64,000 bases of DNA from Amoebophrya sp. A120 (GCA_905178155.1 CAJINV010000015.1:581309-645308); one strand, 5' to 3'; shown: positions 42 through 62,772, numbered from the stretch's first letter. A program made the numbers and translations. Notes: a model not told the origin generated them from the letters alone.

Positions 42-2586
42 ATTCTGTCCGCCATTTCCTTCAGTTCCTTGGTCCACTGCTGGTACATAGCGTCGCTGTT
101 GAGGATTTTCGAAACCAGCCACGCCCCGTGCAACGGAGGAGAGGAATACATCGGACGGATGATGAGCTTGAGCTGGGAGAGGACGACCTGGATGAAATAG
201 AGAGCAGAATGCTGAGCAACTCTTAATCATATCAAGTTTACTTCTTTCTTACCATGCTATTTTTTGCCTGTGCTGGGTGGGGCATTGGCAGAGTACGAGG
301 GATGCATCAACTCGCGGAAAGGAAAAGCAATATGGTCGTAAACGCAACAAGATGAAGTCCCCGAGTCACATTAGAACAAAATCTGCACCTTCGCTCTCTC
401 CGCACTGTTGCAAACTGCGTGCAGCATTCCAATCCGCTCGCCGTACAGCCCCAGGTTCTTCGCAAACGACTGACAGACAAAAAATTCCATCCCGGACGCC
501 GCAAACAGTTCGATCGCCTGGCGGTCCTTCTCCAGCGACCCTGAGGCGTACCCCTGGTAGGCACTGTCCAGAATCACTAAATGTTTTCTCCGCAGACACA
601 CCTCCACGATTTTTTTCCATTGCTCCAAGCTCGGGTCCACCCCGGTCGGGTTGTGCGCGCAGGGGTGCAGCAAGTACAGAGACTTTTCCGGCGACTTAGT
701 TTCCAAGTGATCCAAAAACTTGTCAAAGTCGCACGACTTCGTCGCTTTGTCGTAGTACGGGTACTTTTCCACCGCCATGCCGCTCTTCTGAAAAATCGCC
801 ACGTGGTTGCCCCAGGTCGGATCGGAGTAAAACAGGTGGTTGATTTGCAAATTGTGATTCAGAAACTCCCCCAAAACCCGCAGGGATCCCGTTCCCGACA
901 ACGTTTGCACGCTGGCGATCTTTTCGCCATTGTTCCCACCGGTAGTGTCCGTGAAAAATTTCTCGCCGAAAATCAGCTTCTGGCACGCGGCATGCTTTGC
1001 AAAAGTTGTATCGCAGTCGTTTTATTAGACTGCAGGTCTGCATGATATGGGAGTGTCAGGATTGAAATCGTCAAAGTTGAAATAGTTTGTGAGGCGTAAA
1101 ATGCTAGACGCAAAGTGCCTGTCTTGCAGAGCAGGCAACTGAGGCCGATTGTAAGCCTGTTTGGGGTGTGAGATAGAGCTGCTAAAATAGCATGACAAAA
1201 GCAGTCTTCTCTGCGCAAACAGCATGACAAATTGGATTTCCATGCTGGTAAAGTTTGTCATGCGCCACTTGCAATCTGGGCTCCAGCTGGTATCGCTTTT
1301 TTGCATTACAGATTATTTCAACTTTGACGATTTCGATCCTGACACTCCCATACATGACAGTTCTTCCTACACTTACGTGGATCAGCATTACAAATTCCAC
1401 TTTTCATCTTCTTGAGAAAGTTTGTAATGCAATTTGTACTTAGCACGATAATTTTGCATTGAATACGCGGGCTTCAGGGATTGCAGCCCGTCCACGGGGA
1501 GATATTCCTTGTTGATTTGGTTCAGTTTCGCGTCCCCACCCAGTTCCGCGAGCATTTTTTCCTCCGCAGAACGGACAACCGGCAGGATAAACGGGTTCCC
1601 CTTGGTATGGCGAAGAAAAAGTGTTAACGTTAAAAACGGAATCATGAGCAAATTGATTTCCAGCGAAGTTCCCTAATGCAACTCTTCACCCGATCGCTCT
1701 GGACTAGAGGTCGCCTGCAATTTATACTGCGTTGTCGGTCGGCAAGTGCCAATCGAGCACCGGGAGAAATGCGTTACGTGTCATGCAGTTGCCGATGAAA
1801 CCGACAAAGTAATCGTCGACGTCCGTAGTTTCTCGCAGAAAAATGTTAAAGCGATACTGCTTGGCATTATGCATTTTTGCAAATATCTTTATTTTAGTGC
1901 CAAGATAGAAAGATGCAACTTTGCGTGAAGGCTGCAAAAGCTGGACCTTTGGACGTCGCCGAACCCAGTGAGCATTCTATTTCTAATGAAAAACATCAAA
2001 AATATATTAAGTATTTTCGCACCACCACTTCGTTTTTTCGATCGTTGGGCAAAAGTATTCACAAATGAATGTCGCTGGCAAAGACTGCACAATTCTACAT
2101 TCATGCAACATACAACCTCCATGCGTTTTCATTAAAATTGTTGTCATGCATAAAGAGTGCAATCTAGTATGAACTACTCCCCGTTTTTTAAAGGTAAAAC
2201 TTTTTTCTTTCCTACTCGGTCGTTCGATACGCCCCAATCCCCAGGTTTACCTTCCGCGGGTCCGGGTCTTTTTGGTACAGCAGCGCCGTATTGAGAATCG
2301 GGTCGGGCGGCGCCAGTTGGAGGTCATTGAAAATGGAGGAGAAATGGCGGGGGTGATTCTTGTGGGTAGAATTTATTTTCGGTGTAGGCGTACTGATGAA
2401 AGCCTGAAGTTCTCGTCGAAGAGGTGTTGCAGCTGCTCTGGCTAGTACTGGGGCACAGCGATGAGAGGACGTCGTTGACGATGCAACGCTTCTGGTACAA
2501 CAGCTCCGCCCGCGCTCCGCCCGCAAAAACGGTTTGCAGGCCACACGACTGGGCGCGAGTTTCATTTGTTGACGCAGGCTCATCAT
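42..2586 (-). CDS. GOT: Aspartate aminotransferase (class I PLP-dependent), multi-exon, runs off the left edge; N-terminal extension may be an organellar transit peptide
   Basis: Motifs [52 protein letters not shown] (PLP lysine), [20 protein letters not shown]. Exons ~2586-2215, 1600-1466, 985-388, 187-42. One GT-AG intron (~188-387); the others are TIR introners. Confidence 0.95.
991..1465. mobile_element. Introner family C (degenerate) in GOT, with a nested family A element
   Basis: DR cgcgg (986-990 / 1466-1470). Ends catgctttgcaaaag...ttttgcattgaata. Removal with one DR gives in-frame [11 protein letters not shown]. Confidence 0.85.
1046..1352. mobile_element. Introner family A (nested)
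   Basis: TIR tatgggagtgtcaggattgaaatcgtcaaagttgaaata / tatttcaactttgacgatttcgatcctgacactcccata; DR catga. Confidence 0.92.
1606..2214. mobile_element. Introner family K (single copy here) in GOT
   Basis: Imperfect TIR tatggcgaagaaaaagtgttaacgttaaaaacgg / ccgttttttaaaggtaaaacttttttctttccta; DR cttgg/ctcgg. Removal joins GAYRTT to GNPFILPVV. Confidence 0.8.
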
Positions 2587-3769
2587 GATTTGAATACGTC
2601 TAAGTGCTATAATACCATTTGATCCACTGCTCCGCCGAGTTGTGTTGTCTAATCTTCGACGAGCCCAGCTAGAAGTTATTGTTATCCAGGAGAAAGAGAA
2701 ACCCACCGTTCACTCTTCTCTTCATCACATCTGTGTGTAGTACAGCAAGTACAACAAGGCACCACATCAACTCCTCTACGAATTTATTACTCGCGTCTTC
2801 AAAAAGAATGCTTGCTCATCTGACCCCGAAGAAGATGAACCACCGCACGACCACCTCCATGACTTTCGTTTTCTTTCCACGCTCGCATTCCACAAAAAAT
2901 ATTCAACTCTTTACAACAATACAGCGTTTTTATTTGTCGTTAGAACAGAAATAGATCCAAGTCCAACCCAATACAACTACCTTTATTCGAGAGGACACCG
3001 CGCCGAGAGCGGGCGCCCACTCGTCGCCGTTCGTTCCCGTCGGATAATGATCCGACACTTTTTTATCTTAGCTGATTTTTTTTTAGTATATTTTTATTTG
3101 TACAAAGTTGTGTACTACTAGTAGATACTCGGTCTGGATTATTTTATTTTGCCTTGTTGTAGTTGTACAGTCTTCCTGCTGGCCTGATACTGCCACTACG
3201 TTTCATCCCAACAACGCGGATTCTTGTTTCTCGAGTGGTTGTTAAACTAATTCTCACCTCTTGTAAGTAGTTGCGTTGCCACTTGATGTTACTTGTACAG
3301 GTTTGTCTGCTGGCAATAAAATCTTACTGGAACTACAACCTTGTTGGGAACTACAAGGGCGCAACGATTAATATCAATTAGGGTGGAACAAAGGGTGGAG
3401 GACATAATATCATACAAGATGGAATAATACAGAGTCCTCGGGAGTCAAATTAGAAACAATAGCTGTAAGATATTCTTCGAATAAAACCACGTAGATGCTG
3501 CATATATTCTATGACTAATCGTCGATACGAAGAAGTAGCTTCTGAAACTTCAACTTGTATACGTTGAGAAACAAGTTTACTACTTCGAATTTTGCAGTAC
3601 AGAGAGATTCGACACATTGAAATCTTCTTTCGTCCGTGGTAGATGCTTGTAAACGACACATTATGATTTTGTGAGACTTTTGTTTTTCTCGAATTTTCTT
3701 CGATTTGCGATGAAGTTGATATATAAAAGTAAAGCCGCGACAGCAAGAACACCAACTCAAACATCTTTT

Positions 3770-6700
3770 TTACTTAGTTGGTCTTGCATGCGCCTTTGCC
3801 TTGTGCTTCGCGTGCGCGACGTGTGCCTTCGCCCCCGCGCCCACCGCAGAAGTTCCGCCGGAGGTGCTATGCGCCTTGGCCTTGTGCTTCACACCTCCCA
3901 GTACCTTATTCGGGGAAGATGCGGATGTACTAGTTTTGGCTGCAGCTCCTGTTGCGCTATCACTTGCTCGACTCGCTGGCTGGGCGCTGTCTTGGTGATG
4001 ATCTGCATCCTCGTGGTGGTAGTCTTCATGCTCCTCCGCAGCGTCGCGTTCTATGCATCGCAAAATTTGTATCATCGCACAATAATACCAGCACAAAAAA
4101 TGGCATGACGAATCTTAATCTTTTCAAGAAGAAAAAAAGGCTGCGATCATGCAGGTGAAGTTCATGATTAAAGAAACAGGGTGACAAAGAAGAAGATCTC
4201 CAGCTGTCATCTAGTAATAGTATCACTGTCATGCTGGTGTATAATTGCTGTCGCATGTGAATGAGTACGATGGCGCGAGGACATCACTTTTGCACAGGAT
4301 AACTATCGATTTATTACTCCCCCTGCTCGCACTCGATTTCGGTTCCTCTGCCTTGCTTGCCGGAGCAGCGGAAGGAGTACTATCCTCCTTTTTCTTCCCC
4401 CCGTCCGCGGGCCTCAACCCGTGGGGTAAAACCCAGTAGGGTACGTAGGCTTTCTTCTTCTCGTTGACCCAGGAAACGCCGATCCACCCGTTTGTCGGGC
4501 CGTTCAGCAGCTTCAGCTCCTCCCCTTTTTTCAGGGTAATTTTGCCGTCCTTGGACTTGTAATCGTGGAAGGCGTGGAACTGAACGGGACCGTCTTCCTT
4601 CTTGGGTTTCACTTCCACCGCGTGGTCTGGGAGGTTCGCAAGCGGAACCCAATCCGCGTGTGTAGCATGGTTCGTCACGTTGCGGATCTGGATTTTTGAT
4701 TTAGAATTTTTTCGCTTTTGTTTTCATCTTCGCATCTTCGTCCGGCGCATGACAACTTCTTCGACGAGAGCATTGCTCCGAAGATTATGTCATCATGCAA
4801 GATCCAAGTCCAACATGAAGGTACAGGTAGGAATAAAACCACCTATGAAGTGAACCGCAAAACCTCTACTTGATCATCTGCAAGAGTTCATTTAGAGTTA
4901 GTTATCAGTACCAGCACCCAGCCATCCAGCGGTCCTTTCAAATATTCCACGAGGTCGTTCTCTTCGCAGACACCTTCATACGCCGCCAACGTGCGGAAGA
5001 ACCCCTTGGACACGACCCAACTCGGGGTCCAGTGCGAGATCCCGGTGGCGACGTCCTCCATCAAAATCCAGTTTTTCTCGTTCTTCGGCTTCAAAATCCG
5101 CGCGATGTGCCCGGGGGAGACTTTTTCCTCGAAGCCGTGCTATGCTGAGTAAAAACGTACCCACACCAGAGTCAGGATGGGGATTTTGCAACACAAACCT
5201 AGGAGTTTTGTGAGTCACGCATGACAAGTTTCAGTCCGTAAGGTAGTGCAAGTTAGCAAGGGAAGCCGCATCACAAATCGACCTGCTGATCCTGTTTACA
5301 GCATTACAAGTTCCCAAACACGATTGAAAATGCCTGTCATGGGGTTGCGCATCACAAATGTTCCTGTCATGGCAAATCTGCATGACAACTATGGTGTGGG
5401 GACGTTTTTACACTTGATACGTGCACGATCGTTCTGATGTTCACGTCGACCATATCTAAATCGTCGCCCAGGTACTGGTATGCATTGCAAAAGTATCGCG
5501 CCACTAGTATAAATCGCATGACAAATTAGCCCAGCATGAGAAATGAAATTCGTCATGCTGATTTGCCTTGGGATGGAGATTTGTAATGCATGACTGCGAT
5601 TCTTACTACGTGTACGATACTTTTGCAATGGATAACTGGTTAATGTTGTCTAATTCGCCCTCTTTCTTCTCATACTCTTCCTCCTCCATGTCGACCTGTT
5701 TTGTCATTGCATTCACACATGAAGACTACAACCTTAGACTTCTTACCAAAACCAGCTTTTTTACAGACACGATTTTTCATTTTCACCTTGGGGAAATTTA
5801 TCGATAGATACTAGGAAAGGAAGATCAGGATATTCATATTACTATTTGCGATGCATAAACTCATCAAGGCACCACTGCAAATGCAATCTTTCATACCTTA
5901 ACATCCTCCGGCGCTGCCACTTGTGACGCCCTTGTTGCTTCCGACTTCAAATCTTCTTTTTTCGCAGGCGTACTAGCTGCTCCACCTCGGCTCACCGCCT
6001 TTGGCGCTTTCTTTGGGTCGATCGTGTGCCCCACGTTGAAGGTCTCGTCTTCGTCCAGCATGCGCTCCTGGCACTTGGCGAGGATGGTTCTTGCGTCATT
6101 GAACGCGTGGGAGCCGCCGACGGATTCGTTTGCGTTGTCCGGGTCGTTTTCTGCGCACCAGTTCATGGTGTCTTGGAGTTCGTTATGGATTGTAAAAGTG
6201 TCTGGGTCTGGAAGAATGCGCGACTTGTCATGCTGCTTTCCATGACCCATGAGGTCTGCACCTGCAGAAATGCAAGACCTAGCATGACAGATTTTGCGCG
6301 ATGTCTCTCATGCCTATCCTGCATGAGAAACTCTCTCCCGACCTGGTCAAAACTGGACGACTTTTGGTAATCATGCAACACAGATTTTTGCGTGCTTCAG
6401 ATTTAGCATGACAAGTTGCAATCATCCACACCCAGACATTTTTGCATTTGATATTCGTCGTGCAGTTTCTGCAGGTCCTTCATCAACGCTTTTCGGCTAT
6501 CCCAGAGAAAAAAGCTGGCAGGGCATATTTGTAATGCAAAAATGAATACACAGAAAAATTTGTCATGGGCGGCCCCATAGCATGCTGCTCCGGATATGCA
6601 ATATAGGTTTTTTTGTGTATTTATTTTTGCATTACAAATATGACCTGCCAGCTTTTTTCTCTGGGATATCGCCCCATCAGAATGATGCCAATGGACTCGT

Positions 6701-8237
6701 CGACCTTTAATTATTGAAATTTTTTGATCAGTTCAGTACCATTAAAGCATTTCTCGCACTATGTTGTTTTTCACATGCAAAGCGGGAATGCTACTTCTAT
6801 ACAAGCGACACGTGGTATAGAAGTGCGGTTGTCCACCCAAGGATAAGGCGGCGCAGCTTATTCCCATGAATGTACTACATCGAATTGAAATAAGCAAAGT
6901 GCCACAATCAGAAGCAGAATGCACCGCCCAAGTGCGGTTCTCCTTCTCATGCTGCCGCATCGCGATCAATATTCTTTCTGCACAACAAAAATCATATTTA
7001 CGTTTATGTACTATACCTCGGTCGTTTTCTTTTTTTCCTTTTCCAACCCGGCTTTTCTCCCCAGAGCCGCTTTGTAATCCACCTTCATTGCTGAGTAGAC
7101 GTGCATCAGATCCGTCAACTCGGCCAGGATGTCCTCAACCGATCTGCCCTTGTACTCTGGCGTGGCGCCGTCCTCCTCGTCTTCTTGCTCCCCGTCCTGA
7201 TCGTCATTATCTTCATTCCCGTCCGGGAGCTCAGTTAACTCGATTGTTTGTGATTTCTCCGTAGAAATGGCGGCCTGGCCGGACTTTCGCTTGGGCTGCG
7301 GGGCCGGAATCTCGGGGGTGTCTGCCTCGTGGTGACCTGGTAAATACGTAGGTATTCTTTTCACATCAGCTTTTCAGTTTCAGTTTCAGACGGCGGAAGC
7401 TCTTTTTTCTTCCAACATATCTGCATGTCGTTCTAGATCATCATGATACAGAATATTTTTGTGCAGTCACAACGAATGCCTGCACGAAAAAACAGATTGG
7501 TATGAAGAATTGTATGCACGACGAGGACCTGCCTCCCATCTGCCTCTGTGCTTAATCAAGAACTACAACTGTTTGTTGTACACAAAACTGGTAATCGTCA
7601 CATCTTCATCAAACAATACTTGATTTTTTCTTTGCCGGTGCCGTGTCTTCTCCACTTTGCTGCGCCTTCAGAATTTCCGTTCCGAGAGACCGCGCCCGCT
7701 CCCCGAAGAGTTCGTAGGTGGCCCATTCGGTCGAGAAGCGAATGCTAATGCTATTGTGAGGAAAAATGCCCCCACCCCATAGTTGCCATGCAGAATTGCA
7801 GTCACAGGAAAACTTGTAATGCGAATCCCCATGAGAGGCTCTTTCAATCGCGCGATGCAATTTGTGATGCTGTAAACAGGATACCAGAATGGCTTTGTGA
7901 TGCGGCTGTGGCTGTCCTTGGTACTAACCCGCATTACATTTACAGTACAGAGAAAAACTTGTCATGTGTGACTCCCAAAACTTCTCGATCTGTGTTGCAG
8001 AGTTTCCATCTTGACTATGGGGTGGGGACGTTTTTACAAATGATACATGTTGGACTCCTCCATATACTTGCAATCCGTGACGCGCATTTGGTCATCTCCG
8101 ACCCACAACCGCGCCGGGCCGGAGTGCGAGGGGACCACGGAGCAGGTGACCGGGACCAGCCTCGCGCCACCACCGCAGCAGCCGCCGCTACCCTTACCCT
8201 GCTTCCGCTTGAGCACATACTGGGTGGGAGGTGCCAT
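3770..8237 (-). CDS. Multi-exon gene (possibly more than one) encoding an SH3-domain protein; exon boundaries approximate
   Basis: ORF 4229-4678 has FHAFHDYKSKDGKITLKKGEELKLLNGPTNGWIGV...AYVP (SH3 pattern). Further coding-like minus-strand segments at 4888-5140, 5891-6183, 7011-7340, 7609-7751 and 8046-8237 are separated by introners and AT-rich introns. Confidence 0.55.
5141..5419. mobile_element. Introner family F
   Basis: TIR tatgctgagtaaaaacgtacccacacca / tggtgtggggacgtttttacacttgata; DR cgtgc. Confidence 0.9.
5479..5634. mobile_element. Introner family C
   Basis: TIR tatgcattgcaaaagtatcg / cgatacttttgcaatggata; DR actgg. Confidence 0.92.
6184..6453. mobile_element. Introner family B
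   Basis: TIR tatggattgtaaaagtgtctgggt / acccagacatttttgcatttgata; DR ttcgt. Confidence 0.92.
6498..6668. mobile_element. Introner family E (long TIR)
   Basis: TIR tatcccagagaaaaaagctggcagggcatatttgtaatgcaaaaa / tttttgcattacaaatatgacctgccagcttttttctctgggata; DR tcggc/tcgcc. Confidence 0.92.
7752..8045. mobile_element. Introner family F (diverged)
   Basis: gaaaaatgcccccaccccatagt / actatggggtggggacgtttttacaaatgata; DR only 3/5 (aatgc/catgt). Confidence 0.75.
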
Positions 8238-8539
8238 TTTTTTATCAATTATTCCAACAGTGGGTCGCGGTAAGCCTTTTTATAAAAAACCGCCAATGCT
8301 AGAGAAAACTGTACTCCGATGAATTGCGACAAGCTAAGGATAGCTGTAGATAATGATGTACAGTCATTCTTTTTTGTGAATGCTTACTTTAGGATTTTCG
8401 GGGTAGAAGATGATGCTGGGGGTAACACTTTGTAATGGGAGCAGTTATGCGATTTCCGATTAGTGGTCTGCTGGTGGTAAGAAGTTATTTGTAAAATTAA
8501 ATCCGAGTCGTTGCGTTGTCAAGCACGAGCAATCGGTGA

Positions 8540-9055
8540 AACGACAGACGAAAAGGTAGAATTTGAACGACGAAATCGAATGTGATGTTGATCACGATGA
8601 AAACGATATTTTCATAGACATAGTACCAACCGAGCGAGGGCAGCCGCAGCCTGTCAGACAGAGCTGCAAGTGGATATAACGACCCTGACCGAGAAGACAG
8701 CAAACGCTCCACGACCGAGCAACCGTGTAGTCGGTAGAAGTTGTTCCTCGTCTGTTCATTTTGCGATGAAACAAGTGCGATAAAAATTTCGAGTGTAGCT
8801 AGTAGCGAAGGTGGGTTCGTCGTGCAGCTCTATGTGTCTCACATCACACTGCTCGACGTGGGTGTCCGATTCGTAATGTACGAAAAATACGTATCCCGAA
8901 CGTATGTTAAACGGTTTGCGAGCGCGATTCGATGGACGATGACGAATAGGTTGTAAGCCTGAGTACAAATACCGACTGATATTGCGCTTTTCAGCTCTAG
9001 CAAATAAACTTCTATGTGTTCATCATCGATCTTCACACGACCGATTTTTCCATTC
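8540..9055. repeat. Dispersed intergenic repeat, copy 1 (~500 bp; boundaries approximate)
   Basis: Shares collinear blocks with 11050-11540 (gtgatgttgatcacgatga; gttcctcgtctgttcat; gcgagcgcgattcgatggacgatgacgaata; tcgatcttcacacgaccgatt). Confidence 0.8.
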
Positions 9056-9854: not shown

Positions 9855-10540
9855 TTACTCGGGACAGTACTTTTTGACATTGTCGTTGGTGTGCTCTGGA
9901 CACTCACCACCATCTTCAAGGGTGAAGCAACGACCCAAGGTTGGCGCAGTGAGGCCCATTCCGCCGGAGGCGGCGGCACACTCAAACTTGCAACACGTCT
10001 GGCCACCCATGGCGCAAGAGGTCCCGGGCATACACGGAAAGTGCGGCGTCGGATCCGAAAGCTTGGCCTTCGCCGTCCCCGCACGCAGGAGCTTCTTCTT
10101 CATTCTAGCCTTGTTGGTCCCGGCCTTGTTGGCCTTCACGAAAGTTATATATGCGTTGCAAAAATGTCAACATGATCTGGGTCGGGATTTGTGATGCAAG
10201 TTGATTTCTTGACGGTGGACCAACACCAATCGCAATCCAAGATGGAGATCTGTTTCTGTGATAACGAATTATACACCTGCGCTAAGCCTCAAATGAAATA
10301 ACATCTTCAGATGGCGCTGCTGTTGGTGTCGATTATGTCGTGCAAGAAGCGGCTACTTACTCCGCGATCGCGATGCTCGTAGCAGCAACACAATTTGTCT
10401 GCTCCAGACCCAGGCAAAGGCATATAATTTGCAACGCATAAAAGCTTGCCCGTTCCACCCGTTCCCATCGATTCCCTCAACATCGGTGGGGGGCAGCTTG
10501 ATCGCGGTAGTCGGCGAGCAAGAGTAGACCGCAACGGAAA
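9855..10540 (-). CDS. Putative small Cys-rich protein (probably 2 or more exons), unknown function
   Basis: ORF 9855-10139 contains FPCMPGTSCAMGGQTCCKFECAAA...GRCFTLEDGGECPE...YCPE. An upstream Cys-containing segment lies at ~10310-10540. Confidence 0.4.
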
Positions 10541-10545
10541 CAAAA

Positions 10546-10863
10546 CATCCTGAGAAAAAACGTCCCCACCACAGACTTGTCATGCAGATTTGCACTTACT
10601 TTTACAAAAACATTTGCCAACGTGCATATCCCCGCGATCATGAGAGGCATTTCTAATAATCGCGGTTTGCCATAATTTGTAAAGCTGAGATCAAAAATAA
10701 GAGGAGATGACATTGTGATGCTAACCTGCACTTCTACGAACAATACAGAGAGATGAGAAGTTACTTGTTGTCATGCGTGACTCCCAAACAATCATTTGGA
10801 TCTACTGTGTTACGAAATTCCCTTCATCTTGACTCTCCGGTGGAGACGTTGTTACACAGGATA
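10546..10863. mobile_element. Introner-like element, family F (diverged)
   Basis: catcctgagaaaaaacgtccccacc / ggtggagacgttgttacacaggata; DR caaaa/caaat. Confidence 0.7.
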
Positions 10864-14799: not shown

Positions 14800-17700
14800 T
14801 CAGATGCCGTCCTCCTCTCGCATCGGACTTTTTACTTTTAGCGCGGTCCTCTGACTTTTGCTCGGTCCAGGTTGGACATCATTCGACGTGTTCACCCGAA
14901 GATCGTCCCCCCGGTTGTCCTGCACGGTCAACATGGCTTTTCCACTTCTACTCCCGCCAGGCGTCCCCGCATGTAGTCCTGCTCGTGACCCCTGCTCATC
15001 AACTTCTGTAGAAGTTGCTGAAGCTGCTGCCGTCACTCCAGCTATCGCAGTCACAACACGACTGCTCGGCCTTGTTCTCACCGTCATCAAATGCTGGAAG
15101 ATCACACTTAGCGGGTCTCGGATCGCCCTTTCTTCGCAGAGGATCAACTTTGGGAGCAACAGCTCCACTGCGGCCGACGACGTTCTTGGATTCATATTTC
15201 TACTCTCGTGGTCGCCAGGAGTTGAAGCACAACTTCTCGCGAATATCTCCTGCACTGCGTCGCCCGTCTATGGAACTGTCAGGATTGAAATTAACAAAGT
15301 TGAAATAATTTGTGATGCATAAAATCGACACCAGTTGGAAGCCCAATTCGCAAGCGGCGCATGACAAATTTCGGCGGTCCCTAAATCCAGTTTGTCCTGC
15401 TGTTTAGGCAAAGAAGGGCGACTTTCTCATGCTACTTTAGCAGCTCGAGCTGCAACCCCAAACAGGCTTGCAATCGGCCTCATTTGCCTGCTCTGCAACG
15501 CACGTACCTCGGGTCATGCATTTTATGCATTACAAACTATCTCAACTTTGACGATTTCAAACCTGACGCTTCCATACCGTCCGCGCGATCCGTTGTACCG
15601 TGTCCGCGAGCCGGGATGCCGTGATTTGTCTCCTTATGTAGTTTGCTGAGGGTGAGGCAGTAGTTGTCGCTGCCGCCGGCGCTGCGCCCTTGCCACTCTG
15701 GTGCTGGTGCTGCCCCCGCTTTGACGACGGCGTGCTGCTGTTGATTTCCAATCTTTTTGAAGTTGACGTCCCGGCGCGGCTCGCGGGGGAGAGCTCTTTT
15801 GACGATGGGGAAGCAGTTGTAGAAGAAGAGTCTACTTTCTGTTGTGCTGCGTCATCCGCAGAAGTCGACCACTTTCTGTACTGCTCATATTGCTCGCACA
15901 GCCGGTCCAGCAGCAACTTTTTCGCCAAGTCTTTGACTTTCGCGTTTATCTTCGGGTTAGTAGCAGGATATTCCTCTGTACCAGTAAAGCTGTGTTGCAG
16001 CCATGCGCCACCGCTAGCCGCCGCAGCACCGTGGTGGTGGTTCCCAGGGTCGTCGTCTGTAGCAGGGTCCTTATTGTAGGCCACTCGACCGAGTAGAAAA
16101 TTTTCGTATGCCATGCATGTCAGGCATGAAGATTTGTTGCCGTTGGACGAAGTGCTAGTCGACGTGGACGTCCCAAATGTTGACGTTACACCACGCGTCG
16201 CTAAATCAACCAACAGATTCGTGATGGCCTCGAAAGTTTTCCCGAAGGAGTTTGTACTTGACGTCCCGCTGGTACTCGCACTACTATGTGAGCCAGCAGA
16301 TGATAAAGCGAGCTGCTCCTCCTCCTCAATCATTTGCTCTTGTTCATTTTCGATCAGCATTTTCAGCAACTGCGATACCAAGCTGAAGCTTTCTTCACTT
16401 TGTTTCGCGCAGATTCTTATCCTGTGCAAAAGTATCGCACGCGTAGTAATCGCAGTCATGCATTACAAATCTCCATCCCAAGGTAAAACTGCATGACAAA
16501 TCCCATTTGTCATGCTGAGCTAATTTGTCATGCGATTTATGCTAGTACGATACTTTTGCAGTGCATAATTCTTGGAATCAATTGGTACCCGAGTAGGTGG
16601 ATTTTCGCGCATTCGAGAATGGAAGTGGATACTGGTGTACTGTTGGATGCAGTTGTCTTATTGCCCCCTCCGCCACTACCTCCAGCCTTGCTTGACATCG
16701 CAGGAGAATTGGAGGAAGAGGAGAACGCTGCAAGATGAAATTCGGTGAAATTGATCGCCACAATGAACTTAATCGCTGCATCGAGGAAGGGCTGGTGGTC
16801 GAAATGATTATTTTCAGCTCCTGCTGAAGGTGGCGTTGCAAGCTCGCCGGCGCCCCCAGCCCCCACGACCGTAGAAGGACAGTAAATCGTCTGCAGACAG
16901 TCCTCAATGAGGTAAAACCCCGCCTCAATTGCGACTTTGAACAATCCTGTTTCGATGCTCAGACTGTGCAGGAGTTCATGGTCGACAACATCCGTGCCCC
17001 CACCAACTAGATGACCGATCGCGGAGCCTATGAAAGTGCACAACTCCCCCTCCCCCTCATTTGTATAACTCCTATTGCTGAGCTGCGCAAGTTAAAACTT
17101 TGTGACGGGGAGGAAAATCGTCCACGCCGAAGCTTTTTTTGGCATTTTTCAAACTTTCCAAAGCTGTCGCGATTTGGGAAGTCGCCCAACGCCCAACGGC
17201 CATATTTGCTCGAAATATTTCGCGGCTCGAAATATTTTGGAGCTCGAAATATTTTGGAGCTCGAAATATTTTGAAGCTCGATATATTTTGGTGCTCGAAA
17301 TATTTTGGAGCTCGAAATATTTTGCAATATTTCCCAGCTCGAAATATTTCCCAGCTCGAAATATTTCCCAGCTCGAAATATTTCCCAGCTCGAAATATTT
17401 CCCAGCTCGAAATATTTCCCAGCTCGAAATATTTCCCAGCTCGAAATATTTCCCAGCTCGAAATATTTCCCAGCTCGAAATATTTCCCAGCTCGAAATAT
17501 TTCCCAGCTCGAAATATTTCCCAGCTCGAAATATTTCCCAGCTCGAAATATTTCCCAGCTCGAAATATTTCCCAGCTCGAAATATTTCCCAGCTCGAAAT
17601 ATTTCCCAGCTCGAAATATTTCCCAGCTCGAAATATTTCCCAGCTCGAAATATTTCCCAGCTCGAAATATTTCCCAGCTCGAAATATTTCCCAGCTCGAA

Positions 17701-51772: not shown

Positions 51773-54700
51773 TCACTGCGAAAACGTGACTCCCTGGTTC
51801 GTGATCCGCAAATCGAGAAAAACCTTCTTCTCCGCAGCTGCTGCGCTAGCGAACTTCTCGTTTTCTGCTGCTGGACGACCCCCTTCTCCGCCACTGCAGC
51901 TCAAAGTGTCCTTCACCAACTCCATCTTCCGAAAGGTTGTAGCGCTGAAAGAGCCGGCGCTGGTTGTGGAGGCGCCAAACTGGTTCATTGTTGTAGAAGG
52001 GAAAACATGTTGGCCAACACTTCCCTCAACTTTCCTCAACTGCAATCTGGTGTGCACCCGGCTGGCCACCTGCTGTCCGCCGACCGAGTCGAGGGTGACG
52101 TTGGTGTCGTGCTGGTTGAAGCTTGACATTGTGGAAGCAGCAACTGAAGAAGTTGTTGCACCAGCAGTGTAAGAAGTATTGCTAGAAGAAGAAAACTTGT
52201 TGCGCACCTGATTTGACAAAACCACCGTTAATTTTCCCTCGTCCGCCAGTTTCTGCAGCAGCGAAAACACTTGCTGTACGTTTTGCTTCTGTTTGGAAAC
52301 CAAATCCATGAAGTTTTCCAAGATCAGAAGCTGGTGCGGCTGGTGGACCTGTGATTTTTTTACGTGTTTGATCTTGGCATCGAGAACAAAGTCGCCGCAT
52401 GTTCTTGTTCTTGATTTGATATGCATCGAGAACAAATTTTTATTTTTCGCAGATATAGTACCTCCTTCCCAGCATGACCCACTTCCACCGGCTTGACAAC
52501 CTGCAACAACGATTGCAGGATTGTGACCACATTCCCTGCGCCAGCAGCTCCTGAGCCGGTCGCGTTATTCGCGTCCTTTACTTCCGTATAGTTGATGTAT
52601 TTCAGCAGGTGATTTCCGGACAAACTCACCCGTTTCAAAAACGCTCCGTTTGAAGAACTGGACTCCAAGACGAACACCTGGCTCAAATTGTTGTTGTTCA
52701 TCATACCGTTGGTTTGGTGCTGTGCCGCTGGACCGCTTGTTGAAGCTGCACTTCCGACGTTCTTCTCAATTATCGGAGCAGGACTACTGCTGCCATTCAC
52801 ACCGAGAACCTGCTTTCTCGGCGCCGGACTGGGCATCCCCGGCGGCGACAGGCGGACTGCGACGACGAAGGAAACCGCGAGCTGCGCGAGGAAAGAGGTC
52901 TTCCCCGAACCGGATTCCCCGAAAACCTCCACGATCTGTCCGGGTTTGAAAAAGCCATTGGTCAGGAGTTGGTCGTTAAAGATGGTGGAAGCAGTGACAA
53001 CTGTACTTGCGGAGGCAGGAGCAGCAACGTGACCGCAGCTAGAAGTGGTTTTACTTTTGGTATGCTCGTCGTCCTGCAGTTCTAATTCGTCCGACGCCTG
53101 GCTCCACTGCTTCTGCTTCAGCGCTGCATCGGTTTTGCTCTCGACGACAACTGTCAAAACCGGTTGATGGGCGGTTTCTGCTGCTAGATCCTGCTCTCCT
53201 TTCATCTCATTGTGTGCAACAGCAACTAAAACAGAAGAAGAAGCAGAGCTGGTATCTTTGTTCGCCACAGCATCAGCACTTTTCTTGCTCAGCACCGGCG
53301 ACGAGACTGGTTTGAAGGGAGTAGTTTTCACATCGGGTTGTTTTCCCGAGGCGGTGATGAAAGTCGGGTTGGAAATGGGGGAAGTTTTTTTCGGATTCTG
53401 CAACAGCGCGCTGGACAATACATCTTCGGAGTGTAGTACTGGTAAGGACTCATCGTTTGTTTGATCCAGTTGTTCCCCAACAAACTTCTGCTTTTTCGCC
53501 GGTGGTTTGATCGATTCCGCCGGGGAGACGACGTTGGATTTGTTGATTCCATCCTCAATGCTGCAACTGCTCTGCGACAACTTCTCCACGTCCATTTTAT
53601 CACTGGCCGGTGGGGATTGCGACAGCATTCCCTTCTTCTCAAAATTCAGCGGTTCGATGCTGTTCAACAGATCGCTCTTCAAAGTAGACGAACCGGACGA
53701 GGGTTTTTTGTTAAGGAGGCCGGACAAAGCGTTCTCCTTAGCAGAGTCAAGATCCGTTCTTACTCCGACGTCCGTGCCCTCGGGAAACAGCTTCGCCCCA
53801 CCTAACATCGAATCCGGCGCCGCCAAACCGGTGGAATTCGCGTAGTTGGAGAGCATCGTCGCGGAGGTGTTCGGCGTGGAGGTGGGCATTTTCGTGTTTT
53901 TCATGGCACTTCTGCCTGCGTTGATGTTGAAACCAGCATGAGAAACTTCTTGTTCATCTTCCTCACCTTCGACTTCCATCATGTTCTTTACAAATAATTT
54001 GGACGACATCGGGCTGACATTGTCGTTGTGACTCGTGGTCTCCATCGGATCCTCGTTGCTGCCCGCCACACTGCTGCTCTTCACACTTCCCCCGGCCGAC
54101 AGCTTCGACGCCAGAATGCTCCCCAGCCGGGAGACGGACGGTTGGTGCCCGAGTTTGATCCGCACCCGCTCTTTATGAATTGCAAAAGTATCCTCGTAGT
54201 CGCACTTGTTGTATGAATCGCATAAGAAATTTGCTCAACGTGACAAGTGGAATTTGTCATGCTGAATCACCTAAGAAACCAGATTTGTCATGCAAGTCTG
54301 GCACTTATACGAGTGCGATAGTACTTTTGCGATGCATACTCCTCCTCATCAGACAGCTCTTCCAACGCTTCCTCGAGCACATCGTCGGTTATTTCCTTCT
54401 CCTATCCTGAGTAAAAACGTACCCACACCATAGTCAAGATGGGGAATCGGCTAGACAAATCCACAAGTTTTGGCTGTTTTGCATGACAAATTTGGATTCG
54501 TAGTGTAGTGCTGTTTGAGCTAGCTCAGCAGCATCACAGATCTAGCATACCATGCTGATTGGAGCATGACAAATTGCAAAAAACGACTAGAAAATGCTTC
54601 TCATGGGGCTCCGCATGAGAAACATTTTCAGCATGCAGATTTGCATTACAACTCTGGTGTGGGTACGTTTTTACTGAGGATATCTCCAGAACGTTGTTCT

Positions 54701-55896
54701 CGACAAAAAACTCCGGCTTCAAGGAGTTCCGGATCACCGCGGCGGTGTACGGGGATTTCTGGTTGTTCTCGGATTTGTATGAGAGTGCAAGGCTCCCCCT
54801 CCCCCTCATTTGTATAGCATTGTGCACGGCAATACACACACCCACACACGTGGAGCCCATGCATGACAAATTTCGGGGGCCCAAACAGTACTACAGTGAG
54901 TTGTACTGTTAGTTTGGGCTTCCGAAATTTGTCATGCAAGCAATGCCACAAGGCACCGACCGGATTTGGTATTTTGCATGACAAATGAGGGGGAGGGGGA
55001 GTTGTGCACTGTCGTAATTTGCTCGAGAAAAGCGACGCGTGGGAGGAGGGAGAAAACTGGGGGTCTAACTCATCAAGCTCGGACAGGTATGCATTGCAAA
55101 AGTATCGTACTCGTACTAATTATCGCAGTAATGCATCACAAATGTCTCATCTCTCAAGTCAGAAGATCCCCATTACAAATTTTATTTCTCATGCTGAGAA
55201 AATTTGTCATGCGCTTTCTACTCGTACGATACTTTTGCATTTCGTAACAGCTTGAGTTCGCCAATGTTGGGGAAGGATGTTAGGTCGATCTGGTCGCGTT
55301 GTTCTGAAGAGGACGTAGTAGTTTTGAAGATCAATGTAGCATCGTTGTTTCTGTCCTTCACACCGACGTCCAACATGTTCTGGTCGGGCAATTTGGAGAG
55401 GTGCTCGGCGTCGAAAGCGTTGAAGTGGTGGTATCCCAGAGAAAAAAAAGCTGGCAGGGCATATTTGTAATGCAAAAACACATAGATACACGCTAAAATT
55501 TGTCATGGGTGGCCCCATAGCATGCTACTTCGGATTTGCAGTGCAGTTTTTTTTTGTGTATTGATTTTTGCATGACAAATATGCCCTGCCAGTTTTTTTC
55601 TGTGTGATAGGTGGTTCGGGTTCGCGGCGGTTGCGGACATGTCGGTCTTCATCTTCTGATGTGCTGCTTTAATATTCGGCTGAAGAAGAAGCTGTTGCTC
55701 CACCTCCTCCTCGCGCTGCAACACCACGCCAGCACCGTGCCCTTGCCCTTGTTGGGCCGCGTCCTCATCTCCACCTTCGATCACCATCTGCGTCCCCACG
55801 GTCCGGCGCGGGATGACAGAAATCGGAGTTTTGTCCTTCAAGACATTCCCCGCGCCGCCGCCGCCGGCGAGTTCGCAATCTAAGGCGTCGGCCATG
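51773..55896 (-). CDS. RAD51/RecA-family paralogue with a long low-complexity N-terminal region; multi-exon, boundaries approximate
   Basis: GFFKPGQIVEVFGESGSGKTSFLAQLAV (Walker A in RAD51-paralogue context), QLLILENF (Walker B-like), TVVLSNQV. Confidence 0.7.
54174..54338. mobile_element. Introner family C
   Basis: Family C TIRs; DR ctctt/ctcct. Confidence 0.85.
54403..54682. mobile_element. Introner family F
   Basis: tatcctgagtaaaaacgtacccacacca / tggtgtgggtacgtttttactgaggata; DR tctcc. Confidence 0.93.
54778..55016. mobile_element. Introner family G (empty form)
   Basis: tatgagagtgca...tccccctccccctcatttgt / acaaatgagggggaggggga...tgcactgtcgta; DR atttg. Confidence 0.92.
55088..55246. 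mobile_element. Introner family C
   Basis: Family C TIRs; DR acagg/acagc. Confidence 0.88.
55432..55609. mobile_element. Introner family E
   Basis: Family E long TIRs; DR ggtgg. Confidence 0.92.
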
Positions 55897-56862: not shown

Positions 56863-58141
56863 CTACTTCTTTCCCTTTTTGCCCTTCTTTCCCTTTCTCG
56901 CCGCTTTTCGCTCTTCGTACTCGGTCATGAGGTCTTCCAACAAATCCTCGAGCTGTTTCTCCTCCTCCTGTGACTGCACATTCCACTTTACCAACCGCTC
57001 CCGCAGCCTGGCTAACCTCCTCTCCTGGACAGCCTCCATCTCCAGACGCATGGCTTCGACCTGAGGGAAGATGAGAAATTTGCATTGCATAAACCGCTGG
57101 TGAAACAAAAAACTGTCATGCAAGAGCAAGAAAGCACAATAAGATTAAGAATAAATCGAGAATCGTCATCTTCTCATCTTCTAGTGCCACTCCGTACCTG
57201 CATCATGAACTGCCTGCTCTGGAACTCCTCGGCATACATGTGGAACTTCTCTCGCCTTTCCTGCCGTCTCAAAGCCGAGGCTCGTTCCCTATTTTTCTCC
57301 ATTTTTGCCTCGATTTTTTGCTGCGTGAACGGTGGTATGTCGTTGTGGGAGAGGTCTAACTGGTATGCACAGAAAAAAACCCATCAACATCCAATTTGTC
57401 ATGCAAAAGAACATCCATAACCATAAAGTTCTGTGTTTGTCATGCAAAAAATGGATGTGGATGGGTTTTTTTCTGTGGATAACTGGGTTAACACGTTGTT
57501 GAAGTCCAGGGCGTCGTCTGTTGAGATCATTGATTCGTCGATTTATGTCGGCGATTTTGATTTGAAACAAATGATTAGTGGATAGCATATTTTTGATTTG
57601 GATTACGTAAAACACCAATAAATCAGCATGTGATGTGAAAATCAAAATCTCGACCTCCAGTAAAAAAAGATTATACTAAACGCATCCGCCGCGGCAGGTC
57701 CCAGGCCGTTTTTCGCTAGAGCTAAGATCTGTACGTCCTGGTTTTTCCTCAATCCCTTAGCCAATTCCACTATTCCGCTGCTGTCCTGCCCACCGACTAC
57801 TAGATTGTTGGCTTCGAGGTTGAGGCAGCTGTTATGGAAATTTTCAAAACCGTTCAGATTCAGATAATTATCGAGAGTTCATCGCATGTTGACAATGAGA
57901 AAAAATGCCAACCACTCGTTCGCGCATGATAAAAAAGAAGTCAATTATACAAGACGCGCTCGTTCTTCGTGAGTGCCTCCCCGAAGGCAGCTGCTGCTTT
58001 CACGCCTAAATTGTTCCCTTCCAGATCCATTTTTCGTAGCGAGTCGTTCTTGTGTAGCATCTTTGCAAGCGTGACGCCGTCTGTGATAGTTAGGTCGGTA
58101 AAGTTCAATTGTTGTTGTCCCTTTTTTAAGTTCCCTGCCAT
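56863..58141 (-). CDS. RNI-like leucine-rich repeat protein with a coiled-coil/Lys-rich C-terminus, multi-exon
   Basis: LHKNDSLRKMDLEGNNLGVKAAAAFGEALTKN and LNLEANNL...LAKGLRKNQDVQILALAKNGLG repeats; ends KGKKGKKGKK. Confidence 0.75.
57364..57481. mobile_element. Introner family I
   Basis: tatgcacagaaaaaaacccatcaacatcca / tggatgtggatgggttttttttctgtggata; DR actgg. Confidence 0.92.
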
Positions 58142-58575: not shown

Positions 58576-59536
58576 ATTAGCTGATCCAGACCACCCTCCA
58601 TTTTTGCCCGCTGCTCCTCTTCTTCCCTCTTTCTCCTCTCCTCTTCCTTCCGTCTTCTCTCCTGTTCTGCCTTGAGTTTTTTCGCCTCCTGCTCCTTGAG
58701 CCGCCTCTGTGCCTCCTCCTGCTCTTTGCGTTTTTTCTCATCCCCTATGCATTGCAAATGTGTCTGGGTTGGAAGGATGCTGCAAGGTCTGTCATGCTTG
58801 TCTGGCATGACTGAAGAGTTTGTGATGCGTGTCCACGAAGAGACCCTTTTACTCGTCACCACGCAAAAACGCAGTTTGTCATGCGGAAAGCGCAACACTA
58901 ATCAGCGCAGATATTTCTCAACATGCTTGGCTGTGCATTACAGAGCATCAGCATTCACTATTCGTCCCAACCCAACATTACAAGTTTCCAGACCCTCCAG
59001 ACATGTTTGCAGTTGATATCCTCGGCCTCTTGTCTTCTTCGCTTGATCAAATCTATCTTTTTCTGCTTCAAGTCCGCGGAGCGTTGCGTGTTCGGGAGCG
59101 CAGAAGTTGCAGGCTTGAAGACGAGATCTGAAAGAGGATTTTAATGTAGTTTAATATCTGCATTGCATCAACTGAAAACCAAAGCGTGTCAATTACTGCG
59201 CATCAGTATAAATATGCATCATGACAAGAAGTTCAAGCATGTTGCAATCAGTACTTCCTTTCACTGTATCATCTTCTCCAAATTGCATCAACTGGTCCTC
59301 TATCGACTGCAAAAATATCGTACTAGAAGTCGGAATTGCAAATATTAACGTGCGTCACTGTGACTTCCATTTGCTTCCCAATGTAAACCAGCATTACAAG
59401 AAACTCCACAATTCAAGCTGAGCGAGCAATTTGTACATGCAATTACCACTAGTACGATTCTTTTGCACTGGATAGCCTCCGTCATCGAGGCTATGAGAGC
59501 ATTTGTCTCAGCCTCGATTTGTGCTTGCGTCGCCAT
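58576..59536 (-). CDS. Putative small coiled-coil (E/K/R-rich) protein, multi-exon
   Basis: MATQAQIEAETNALIASMTEA...; EKKRKEQEEAQRRLKEQEAKK...; pieces separated by introners C and B. Confidence 0.5.
58746..59018. mobile_element. Introner family B (diverged)
   Basis: tatgcattgcaaatgtgtctgg / ccagacatgtttgcagttgata; DR tcccc/tcctc. Confidence 0.82.
59301..59474. mobile_element. Introner family C (diverged)
   Basis: tatcgactgcaaaaatatcgtactag / ctagtacgattcttttgcactggata; DR tcctc/gcctc. Confidence 0.85.
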
Positions 59537-61617: not shown

Positions 61618-62772
61618 TTATCTCAGCAGCGCTCCCGAAACCGGTACAAAATCGTAGTAGATGATGCACTATCCTGTGCAAAAGTATCGTACTCGTAGCA
61701 ATCGCAATTATGCATCCCAAATCTTTATTTTCCTAAGGTAAATCCGCAATACAAATTTAATTTCTCATGCTGAGGAAACTTGTATATGCTTATGCATTTA
61801 TACGAGTACGAGTACGACAGTTTTGCAATTCATATGCACTCACCCCCCGTTACGCCGCATTCCTCGAGACTTGCGTCTGCCGAGACGATTTCTGGTTTTT
61901 GTGTCATGTTGGGGATTTTGCATCACAAGAACCATTTTTACCAATACCATTGCAAAATGGTTTTCATGCATAAAAAGCAACAAGGGAGGGACCGAGGCAC
62001 AACATATACCACTGTACTACCTTCTGGATGAAATCGATTCACACAAATCGACAGCTTGTCGATTGACCCACCGTGTCTGTGGATAATTAAGTCCTCGATG
62101 TAACTTATTTTCGTTGTTGGCTTCACCTTTATTGTAAACTCCAGCAGCGTGCAAACTGGGGCGGCCTGATAGGATGTGTTTTTCCACCGTGATATGATCG
62201 TCAAGAAGAGGCAGAAGCAGATCGGGGTTATTTCCCAAATCAATTCAGGGATAGCATGACAACTACGAGTTTGCTCTGCATAGAGGAGAAACAAATTAGT
62301 ACGCATGAGAGGTGGATCAAACACAACAACAAATACGAGTTTTATCGTTGCTTGGACTTCCCGGTTGTCTATTATGGGTGTGTCAGGATTGAGATCGGCA
62401 GACTGTTGAAATAGTTTGTCATGCATAAAACCGATACCAGTTAGTAGGAGGCCCAGTTATCAAGCGGCGCATGACAAATTTTCCGAGCACCGGAATCCAA
62501 TTTGTCATGCTGTTTGGGCACAGAAGACTGCTTTTGTCATGCTACTTTAGCAGCTCTAGTTCAAGCCCTACACAGGCTCACAATCGGCCTCACTTGCCAT
62601 TCCGGCAAGACAGGCACTTCATCCCTGGCATTTTATGCATGACAAATCATTTCAACTTTGTCGATGTCAAACCTGACGCTTCCATATCTATTCTTGATGG
62701 CGTTATTACTGGGTGGTCGTACTTGGCAGCCTCCTCTACCTTCTCCTTTGCCTTCTTCGATTTTTTACCCAT
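61618..62772 (-). CDS. Small multi-exon protein, possibly a ubiquitin-like fold, unknown function
   Basis: MGKKSKKAKEK...TPSRI-DNREVQATIKL...FTIKVKPTTKISYIEDLIIHRHGGSI...SLEECGVTGGE-CIIYYDFVPVSGALLR*; joins through introners A and C. Confidence 0.55.
61670..61834. mobile_element. Introner family C
   Basis: Family C TIRs; DR tgcac. Confidence 0.9.
62373..62686. mobile_element. Introner family A
   Basis: tatgggtgtgtcaggattga / tcaaacctgacgcttccata; DR tctat. Confidence 0.92.

Follow-up and report, generated by a model that had tools for sequence, protein, structure and literature searches.

In this marine parasite, with a genome of the Amoebophrya type, most introns are small transposons that lack the usual splice signals, and their families share one 11-base motif at a fixed spacing. 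We consider it an even call that this motif is a selected site of 11 to 12 bp, likely bound by a protein as duplex, that would serve all TAT…ATA introner families and would mark introns in addition. One shared, spaced motif offers a concrete bait for a protein as well as a genome-wide prediction. The window, by which we mean the whole 64-kb stretch of DNA analysed, contains about 40 small TAT…ATA introners with a 5-bp TSD (Table 1).

Three variants of the motif account for 62 exact copies in the window, namely GCATGACAAAT (21 on the plus and 18 on the minus strand), GCATTACAAAT (7 and 6) and GCATCACAAAT (5 and 5), and GCATAACAAAT was found just once on the plus strand and not at all on the minus strand. 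The first-pass annotation had described a motif, GCAT(G/T/C)ACAAAT, that recurs in both orientations within introner families, appears in intron-like parts of a 13-kb element and is rare in exons. All of this was borne out: 58 of the 62 exact copies were in the TIR elements, i.e., the small introners, against a shuffled mean of 0.05 over these 9.3 kb. Three more fell within 1.2 kb of introns inferred for the 13-kb element and one within 28 kb of exon, with none in the host GT-AG introns, the intergenic DNA or the nested 2.8- to 3-kb elements of the window. The choice at position 5 also held, but the motif had been drawn too narrowly, since positions 7, 9, 10 and 11 are degenerate; the full site after widening is (H)GCAT[G/T/C]A[C/G]A[A/G][A/G][T/C]. 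Its relaxed core, GCAT[GTC]A[CG]A, had 166 matches in the window, with densities of 14.3/kb in the elements (35 times the shuffle), 10.8/kb in the introns of the 13-kb element (31 times) and 1.9/kb in host GT-AG introns (5.7 times), against background level in the exons and intergenic DNA of the window. Each of the 40 window elements scored had one to seven sites. The background for enrichment comprised the window together with 308 kb of JACKZZ01 contigs, a single assembly that supplied 86 of 123 metagenome loci; 37 loci from other assemblies, which had no element-family match, were left out.

Table 1. Elements and inferred introns of the window with their motif sites
Feature	Position	Strand	Remarks
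150-bp-family introner with nested 308-family copy	991..1465		within aspartate aminotransferase gene
308-bp-family introner	1046..1352		6 sites score ≥8; landed in motif copy of host element, TSD CATGA
old TIR element	4052..4301		ends intact, no TSD, weak sites only; alternative GT-AG register
280-bp-family introner	5141..5419		sites nearly all one orientation; spacings 31, 49, 33, 48, 31
150-bp-family introner	5479..5634		
265-bp-family introner	6184..6453		
175-bp-family introner	6498..6668		
280-bp-family introner	7752..8047		orientation opposite to element at 5141
short single introner	10150..10263		one site
280-bp-family introner	10546..10863		
308-bp-family introner	15269..15576		
150-bp-family introner	16418..16567		sites + + - -
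235-bp-family introner	17029..20040		interrupted by 2.8-kb insertion without motif (17064-19848)
150-bp-family introner	20107..20255		
265-bp-family introner	21526..21793		
321-bp-family introner	22271..22597		
265-bp-family introner	24005..24267		
308-bp-family introner	24319..24626		
265-bp-family introner	24960..25221		
120-bp-family introner	25285..25415		one direct pair, 33 bp
239-bp-family introner	26015..26253		
308-bp-family introner	26306..30454		grown to 4.1 kb through nested insertions without motif
265-bp-family introner	30515..30778		
265-bp-family introner	30913..31177		
210-bp-family introner	31485..31695		
150-bp-family introner	31767..31916		
239-bp-family introner	32516..32751		
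150-bp-family introner	32802..32950		
239-bp-family introner	33455..33693		
265-bp-family introner	33756..34017		
13-kb hAT-like transposon	34056..47101		TAT...ATA ends, 60-bp outer and 79-bp inner inverted repeats, 8-bp TSD
inferred GT-AG intron, 13-kb element	36536..36650	-	one perfect site, no TIR trace
inferred intron, 13-kb element	36780..37012	-	decayed TIR relics; four high-scoring direct sites, 40/42/57 bp apart
inferred GT-AG intron, 13-kb element	37425..37578	-	direct pair, 33 bp
inferred intron, 13-kb element	37745..37860 (approximate bounds)	-	direct pair, 36 bp
inferred intron, 13-kb element	39070..39250 (approximate bounds)	-	one site
inferred intron, 13-kb element	39350..39460 (approximate bounds)	-	two sites
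main exon, hAT/Hermes-like DDE transposase ORF (P0001)	41447..44725	-	
inferred GT-AG intron, transposase gene	44705..44899	-	one perfect site
150-bp-family introner	48564..48713		
265-bp-family introner	49099..49366		inside GT-AG intron 48928-49378
150-bp-family introner	54174..54338		missing from RNA contigs (by length)
280-bp-family introner	54403..54682		only antisense sites (score ≥10) on transcript; missing from RNA contigs (by length)
235-bp-family introner	54778..55016		missing from RNA contigs (by length)
150-bp-family introner	55088..55246		missing from RNA contigs (by length)
175-bp-family introner	55432..55609		missing from RNA contigs (by length)
120-bp-family introner	57364..57481		only sense sites on transcript; missing from RNA contigs (by length)
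265-bp-family introner	58746..59018		TIR begins TAT + motif-like word; missing from RNA contigs (by length)
decayed 150-bp-family introner	59301..59474		one site; missing from RNA contigs (by length)
150-bp-family introner	61670..61834		
inferred non-GT-AG intron without TIR	62222..62345 (approximate bounds)	-	direct pair, 49 bp
308-bp-family introner	62373..62686		

T was the first base in 77 and A the second in 79 of 80 element ends, the end consensus of most elements was TAT-S-NNN-TG-Y-AAAA, and a 5-bp TSD flanked all 36 elements checked (26 perfect, 10 with one mismatch). Any GT/GC-AG register was available in 4 of 36 elements; the splice borders are thus non-canonical. These properties are those of the Amoebophrya introner elements, non-canonical repeated introns of many families with inverted repeats of TAT, seven variable bases and AAA and with short direct repeats (Farhat et al. 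2021, PMC7789003), which are likewise lost from the transcript. The portion of that paper available to us describes no internal motif (GCATG is absent), proposes an RNA hairpin and mentions no transposase in the TAT-type genome; in our data, by contrast, there are a spaced internal motif, ends mostly without covariation and a hAT-like ORF with TAT...ATA ends. Calling the families unrelated was correct for their interiors (164 of 171 pairs of masked family consensuses) but an overstatement, because ends and TSD length are common to all.

RNA contigs (runs X1 and X2) were short by exactly 1,046 and 1,468 nt, which equals eight elements, each with one TSD, plus six GT-AG introns. RNA support here means agreement in length and not read junctions; introns in 1-17050 were called from reading-frame continuity. 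Removal of an element with one TSD restores the exact empty site. All eight RNA-supported elements had sites, and six of seven RNA-supported GT-AG introns had none. Some GT-AG introns do have perfect pairs, one of them conserved between gene copies; such pairs speak against the model that we favour, which has no need of them.

The sites follow a spacing grammar. Pairs of like orientation stand 31 to 33 bp apart in the window, and 187 metagenome copies from 14 lineages replicate this. Among same-orientation pairs no more than 70 bp apart in 189 metagenome copies without the search pattern, 172 of 398 were spaced by 31 to 33 bp, in a single peak with no 10.5-bp ladder. Counted per lineage, this spacing scored 8.1 of 14 against a null of 1.1, a value reached by 0 of 1,000 permutations, and the pair was missing in 4 of the 14 lineages. 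In the window, the outermost outward site began roughly 40 or 50 bp inside the element end, and this was replicated in the metagenome copies (40 to 41 bp in 51 and 48 to 52 bp in 91 of 195 ends; per lineage, 10.9 of 28 ends versus a null of 2.2, reached by 0 of 1,000 permutations); in the 150-bp family, the distance ranged from 39 to 58 bp.

If the motif were an RNA-level splicing signal, branch-point-like or protein-bound and present in both orientations so that an element splices either way, several observations would fit. The consensus of branch points is yUnAy, and the T-N-A of the core matches it on both strands, position -1 being the free base; many families have a sense copy about 35 to 45 nt before the 3′ end, provided by the outward sites; and 85 of 100 elements with a called strand have both orientations. 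Moreover, BLAST detected no genes for U1, U2 or U5 in the genomes, according to the part of PMC7789003 at hand. Nevertheless, sites were sense in 189 and antisense in 204 cases (P = 0.48), i.e., without strand bias, and their distance from the 3′ end of the elements was not constant, which led us to reject a branch point. Seven of the 100 elements were sense-only and six antisense-only, and spliced elements include both kinds. Motif copies as RNA stem partners were rejected as well, since only 64 of 169 sites paired in register in folds and symmetric opposite sites showed no base-pair covariation; and one GT-AG intron with a motif pair (L057) has its own, separate TACTAAC ahead of the AG. An RNA-level reading is therefore improbable, and the absence of strand bias, fixed 3′ distance and covariation indicates that the site is probably recognised as double-stranded DNA. 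Of the orientation-independent splicing signal once proposed, a role in intron removal fits the conservation after insertion described below, but the reading as RNA is disfavoured.

With a matrix trained on other families and sites called in a third copy, the core proved to be conserved to the same degree as the TIRs, and position 5 diverged by 47% yet avoided A; in the 150-bp family the third-copy test was weak (0.22 versus 0.28). Stop-codon avoidance was discarded as the cause of the position-5 rule, stops being present in GCATGA and in the reverse of GCATTA as well. Ten families (6 to 60 copies) showed the pattern too, with core identities of 0.79 to 0.97 versus 0.58 to 0.77 elsewhere in the interior. 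That the motif reflects common descent or gene conversion without function is next to negligible as an explanation. Seven of the 171 masked family pairs are related and the ends are common to all families, but descent alone fails because conservation of the core matches that of the termini, whereas position 5 is free to vary except that A is avoided, and the excess conservation within families, the non-homology of most masked families and the common spacing largely refute it.

Conservation after insertion was followed at two locus pairs, whose homologous gene copies have five insertions in common, leaving out shared 150-bp elements with the search pattern (L016/L047, L049/L057). The core had changed at 3 of 84 positions versus 12.3% in a neutral simulation (2 of 250 runs as low) and the ends at 9 of 118 versus 17.8% (1 of 250 as low), whereas four GT-AG introns of the same gene pair had 7 of 44 changed and behaved neutrally (80 of 250). 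One of the five had a single weak site only, though its ends were conserved. Since motif and ends were kept in these five insertions, the result points to a role of the motif for the host after insertion.

This bears on the view that the sites serve transposition only, as subterminal repeats for a shared transposase that decay after fixation while splicing uses the element ends alone. Terminal phasing and direct pairs, common ends and TSD, motif-like words in some TIRs (directly after TAT in 81 of 580 element ends), the relic-like degenerate sites of host GT-AG introns and the precedent of Hermes and Ac (PMC10368747, as far as available) speak for it. So may the changes that build up in older copies: with age judged by TSD, these had gained 1.5 points in the core versus 2.2 elsewhere, which is compatible with relaxed selection. 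It is an unlikely view, though one to be taken seriously: shared elements keep core and ends after insertion while GT-AG introns do not, and strong sites occur in TIR-less introns of the 13-kb element, at least 2.5 kb from its ends (10/kb versus 12.8/kb in the elements, the intron bounds being inferred and four of the eight introns partly placed by eye using the motif).

The 13-kb element is located in an exon, and its removal preserves the reading frame. It encodes a second large protein (P0002) and P0001, a transposase whose predicted fold is that of a Hermes-like hAT enzyme. The catalytic residues D, D and E and the CxxH and RW motifs of hAT transposases are conserved over 13 homologues. 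The model of P0001 (pLDDT 72.5) matched Hermes in all top 10 PDB hits (best E, 1.7e-4; TM just 0.24 to 0.30), and an atlas search gave hAT leads, with values below 0.9. A word-based protein search, a PDB sequence search and a single-sequence fold gave nothing usable for P0001, and the ORF, the upstream exon and the 13 homologues had no Pfam match, whether to an N-terminal BED finger or otherwise. Viral contigs contained no copy of the motif pair and no protein related to the transposase. The element shares the TAT...ATA ends with the small introners but not the TSD length, and it counts against our favoured model that the sole transposase found goes with a TSD of 8 bp (6 bp on another reading) instead of 5 bp and with ends that have no sites at 40 or 50 bp.

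In hAT elements (Hermes, Ac, Tol2), short subterminal repeats in both orientations inside the ends are read as DNA by a transposase domain (PMC10368747, in the part available). Introners resemble non-autonomous hAT elements in having TIRs, a TSD and a motif that recurs in either orientation at defined distances from the element ends. The Hermes site, as given there, is however 4 bp long and clustered near the tips, whereas the introner site has 11 to 12 bp, occurs element-wide in 31- to 33-bp pairs and is kept after insertion. The TSD of the small introners is 5 bp and that of a typical hAT 8 bp; since a hAT5 with 5 bp exists (PMC12730594, from a partial text), the small introners may work like hAT, yet we do not class them as hAT. 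The subterminal repeats of CACTA/En-Spm are DNA sites of a transposon protein proposed to alter host transcript splicing (PMC4219821, as excerpted); there, binding is proposed to block splicing, whereas in introners it would enable removal of GT-AG-less introns, and CACTA/En-Spm ends in CACTA with a 3-bp TSD rather than TAT...ATA with 5 bp. Euglenid nonconventional introns also have non-canonical borders and a removal mechanism that is not established, but they are described as held by terminal RNA pairing, and the accessible parts of PMC11170887 and PMC6221363 describe no spaced internal motif.

In the model that we favour, one trans-acting protein, probably with a transposase-type DNA-binding domain or a partner of one, would bind the sites. 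Recognition would take place on DNA, as suggested by the independence of orientation and a spacing of three B-DNA turns, and the sites would derive from binding sites of a transposase, subterminal or internal, of the kind known from hAT and CACTA elements; these two steps are fairly well supported, and we regard them as quite probable. The shared protein-binding code of the first-pass annotation is in this sense retained as a putative transposase-type DNA site, which suits the spacing and the terminal phasing, and disfavoured as an RNA-level signal. In a third step, which rests on the five shared insertions, the intron would be defined, while transcription is under way, by the element in its bound state, the cuts being set by the two end sequences; this would be the host's reason for retaining the sites. 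The bound protein would thereby also mark GT-AG-less introns for removal from messenger RNA.

Two other DNA-level readings were weighed. A host DNA-binding protein that positions nucleosomes or silences repeats, unconnected with RNA removal, would agree with the DNA-type grammar and the conservation after insertion but is very improbable: the sites are absent from intergenic DNA and the nested 2.8- to 3-kb repeats and are phased to element ends, and a nucleosome-length ladder was rejected from the element lengths (109 to 330 bp). Extremely improbable is precise excision at some life stage, in the manner of the internal eliminated sequences of ciliates, by a domesticated transposase acting on those DNA copies that are transcribed. 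It would account for the restored empty site, the signals that appear to be read from DNA and ends conserved each on its own (they can pair in folds, but left-right covariation exceeded expectation in only two of seven families and was absent in five). We know of no germline-soma split in this parasite, however, and DNA-run contigs span the elements, with no precise skips among 15 of 770 joints listed (contigs drop rare forms).

The available part of PMC7789003 leaves open how tens of thousands of GT-AG-less introns are removed, apparently without U1, and what moves the introner families. A hAT-like transposase with TAT...ATA ends weakens the argument published there against transposase-driven mobilisation, and if the motif does mark introns at the DNA level, transposons would here have become introns in an unusual way. 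Tentatively, and with the chances rather against it, most introns may be DNA-defined, a transposon-derived protein on paired 11-bp sites marking non-GT-AG introns, recruiting their removal during transcription and replacing U1-type 5′ splice-site recognition; any insertion with TAT...ATA ends and these sites would then become a harmless intron in either orientation. The best named single-domain match of the aspartate aminotransferase gene was from Amoebophrya sp. A25 (69%).

The window is eukaryotic and contains long minus-strand genes interrupted by short repeats; its aspartate aminotransferase (371-1021) had its best named single-domain match in Amoebophrya sp. A25 (69%). About 40 elements of 114 to 327 bp have TAT...ATA ends and a 5-bp TSD, and these ends fit the pattern TAT + 7 nt + AAA described for Amoebophrya introners in the text of PMC7789003. 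The introners themselves are already known. Long frames open once each element and one TSD are deleted, and in a Sec7/BIG-like gene this gave a 3,158-codon frame across 22 insertions. Removal was supported by contigs of two sequencing runs (X1 and X2, presumed to be RNA) that skip sequence: exactly 1,046 nt were missing in one gene and 1,468 nt in another, lengths equal to five elements with their TSDs and to three elements with their TSDs plus six GT-AG introns, respectively. One GT-AG intron, of 113 nt, was also skipped directly. A GT/GC-AG register is possible in only 4 of 36 elements. The host GT-AG introns inferred in the window start with GTA in 14 of 14 cases and with GTAT in six, the latter being G plus the TAT end of an element.

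The motif GCAT(G/T/C)ACAAAT is real and selected. The first-pass annotation had claimed that it recurs across introner families and appears rare in exons, and indeed, of the 62 exact words in the window, elements hold 58, inferred introns of the 13-kb hAT-like transposon another 3 and an exon the remaining one. With the refined consensus, (H)GCAT[G>T,C]A[C>G]A[A>G][A>G][T>C], strong sites (score of 14 or more) occurred at 12.8 per kb in elements versus 10.0 in the inferred introns of the 13-kb element; values were 0.2 in exons, 0.1 in intergenic DNA, 0 in nested 2.8-3 kb repeats and 0.8 in 14 host GT-AG introns, a set that included intron 4051, later found to have TIR ends (2 strong sites in 13 introns, 2.3 kb, without it).

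In the window, matches between families fall mainly on motif pairs or termini. When sites were called in a third copy with a matrix trained on other families, divergence in five window families was 0.11 to 0.22 in motif columns versus 0.21 to 0.32 in other interior columns, the 150-bp family being the weakest case; pooled, it was 0.47 at motif position 5 and 0.09 to 0.17 at core positions. A pattern scan gave 123 loci, 86 of them from one metagenome assembly, which carry the window's families at about 73 to 94% identity and yielded 250 elements. The core equals the termini in conservation in ten families with at least six copies, and with sites and ends masked, homology was found in only 7 of 171 family pairs, leaving about 14 lineages. 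Descent alone is therefore not the explanation.

The spacing of sites from the termini, singled out earlier for checking, proved regular. Within the window, same-orientation sites 31 to 33 bp apart were found in a mean of 7.6 of 13 families versus 1.4 in the null (best-window null: mean 4.0, maximum 8 families), and the first outward site begins 40 to 42 or 49 to 52 bp from the end at 12.9 of 26 ends versus 2.5. Distance windows were set on these data and then fixed for the metagenome copies, of which the 61 of 250 holding the search pattern were left out. There, 172 of 398 same-orientation pairs were spaced 31 to 33 bp, and the first outward site lay at 40-41 bp in 51 of 195 ends, at 48-52 bp in 91 and between these in 20. 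Counted by lineage over 187 elements, after removal of two calls that lack sites, 8.1 of 14 had the pair versus 1.1 expected and 10.9 of 28 the end distances versus 2.2, with 0 of 1000 permutations as high in either case. Since most metagenome lineages overlap with those of the window, the spacing is replicated in copies more than in families; all 4 copies of the two new pair-bearing lineages had it, and two new lineages of one copy each were without it. Of 44 copies of the 150-bp family, 37 have the pair at 31 bp, while the site-to-end distance varies. B-DNA has 10.5 bp per turn; 31.5 bp is three turns, and the two site-to-end distances are one turn apart.

A coding strand was called for 100 of the 212 elements; as transcribed, 189 of their sites were sense and 204 antisense, and asymmetric families were found inserted in both directions. 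Two of the eight RNA-supported elements have antisense sites only and one sense only, with no fixed site-to-3' distance among the eight; 6 of 7 RNA-supported GT-AG introns have no site. In folds, sites paired in register in only 64 of 169 cases. Symmetric opposite sites did not covary (48/111 versus 44.1 expected, 13/56 versus 23.8 and 0/14 versus 4.6), and TIR positions 4 to 14 covaried in only two of seven families, so each end and each site appears to be held to its sequence rather than to its partner. Judged from sequence, the motif is most likely read as DNA rather than RNA.

Transposition is indicated by the terminal phasing, the shared ends and the motif-like words that directly follow TAT at 81 of 580 ends. 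Once a copy is fixed, however, it is beyond the reach of selection for transposition, so conservation after insertion indicates a host requirement. Two pairs of homologous loci have insertions in common, whose differences therefore postdate insertion; in one pair, L016 and L047 (paralogues or strains), exons differ by 4.7%. In a small sample of five unselected shared elements from both pairs, 3 of 84 core positions had changed versus 12.3% in neutral simulation (2 of 250 simulations as low) and 9 of 118 end positions versus 17.8% (1 of 250), whereas change in four GT-AG introns was at the neutral level (7 of 44; 80 of 250). A comparison of copies with perfect versus mismatched TSDs leaned to relaxed selection. 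Most simply, the host requirement for core and ends would be intron removal. Strong sites were also present in 7 of 8 TIR-less introns of the 13-kb element, just one of which has TIR relics. The metagenome loci hold 78 strong sites outside elements; 38 make 19 two-site clusters, of which five are search matches and several lie in apparent GT-AG introns. Some host GT-AG introns may be old introners turned canonical.

From this grammar, one protein most likely recognises the site in duplex DNA, where paired sites are separated by three turns. That protein probably originated in the transposition machinery and still belongs to it, which would be why unrelated interiors converge on the motif. The host has then likely come to rely on the bound element for recognising introns without GT-AG, as the five insertions and the TIR-less introns suggest. 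Of the shared protein-binding code proposed at first, a transposase-type DNA site is favoured by phasing and pairs and a role in intron removal by post-insertion conservation, and reading in RNA is disfavoured by the missing strand bias. hAT transposases bind subterminal repeats (PMC10368747), and CACTA sites were proposed to alter splicing (PMC4219821); there, however, binding is proposed to block splicing, whereas here the bound element would mark the intron for removal. Motif, spacing and post-insertion conservation were absent from the literature searched, including passages of PMC7789003 and PMC12130899, and are to that extent what is new about these introners; Roy et al. 2023 (Curr Biol) may bear on this, as may the figures in the supplement of PMC7789003.

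In the passages of PMC7789003 searched, no transposase is reported for the TAT-type genome. The 1,093-codon ORF of the 13-kb element has 15 homologues, with D, D, CxxH, RW and E kept, and a structure model from 14 sequences (pLDDT 72.5) had Hermes as its top ten PDB matches (best E 1.7e-4, low TM-scores); the ORF is a predicted Hermes-like transposase. X1/X2 contigs did not cover the examined part of the element, which sits in an exon of a Sec7/BIG-like gene. The multi-exon gene of the element had no convincing Pfam match, and a DNA-binding partner is a possible product. The tyrosine recombinase ORF apparently falls within an intron, at about 37946-38920, that belongs to another of the element's minus-strand genes. 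Both 2.8-3 kb copies are nested in introners and have a relative in locus L003. The 700-bp direct repeat is probably an assembly artefact.

Large and nested features of the window
Feature	Position	Strand	Remarks
13-kb hAT-like transposon	34056-47101		TAT...ATA ends, two-part inverted repeats, 8-bp TSD
Tyrosine recombinase ORF	38126-38884	+	Pfam PF00589, E 3e-13; inside 13-kb element
Multi-exon gene of 13-kb element	35036-37960 and 38925-39955		Last exon is P0002, the second large protein
2.8-3 kb element, two copies	17064-19848, 27219-30242		Without TIRs; internal tandem repeats; motif-free
Further nested insertion in 4.1-kb introner	26365-27175		Related to locus L051
Near-identical 700-bp direct repeat	40070-40790, 40890-41590		Flanks 100-N gap
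Duplicated ~450-bp stretch	8600-9070, 11080-11530		Apparently non-coding; seen by eye

The two gene copies L016:1-2962 and L047:1-2802, which we take to be glutamine-synthetase-like from a sequence motif, have nine introns in common and several differing insertions and are a natural record of intron gain. In the other pair, the element at L049:4146-4404 is missing from the homologue L057, which has a clean empty site, and the reverse case is found nearby.
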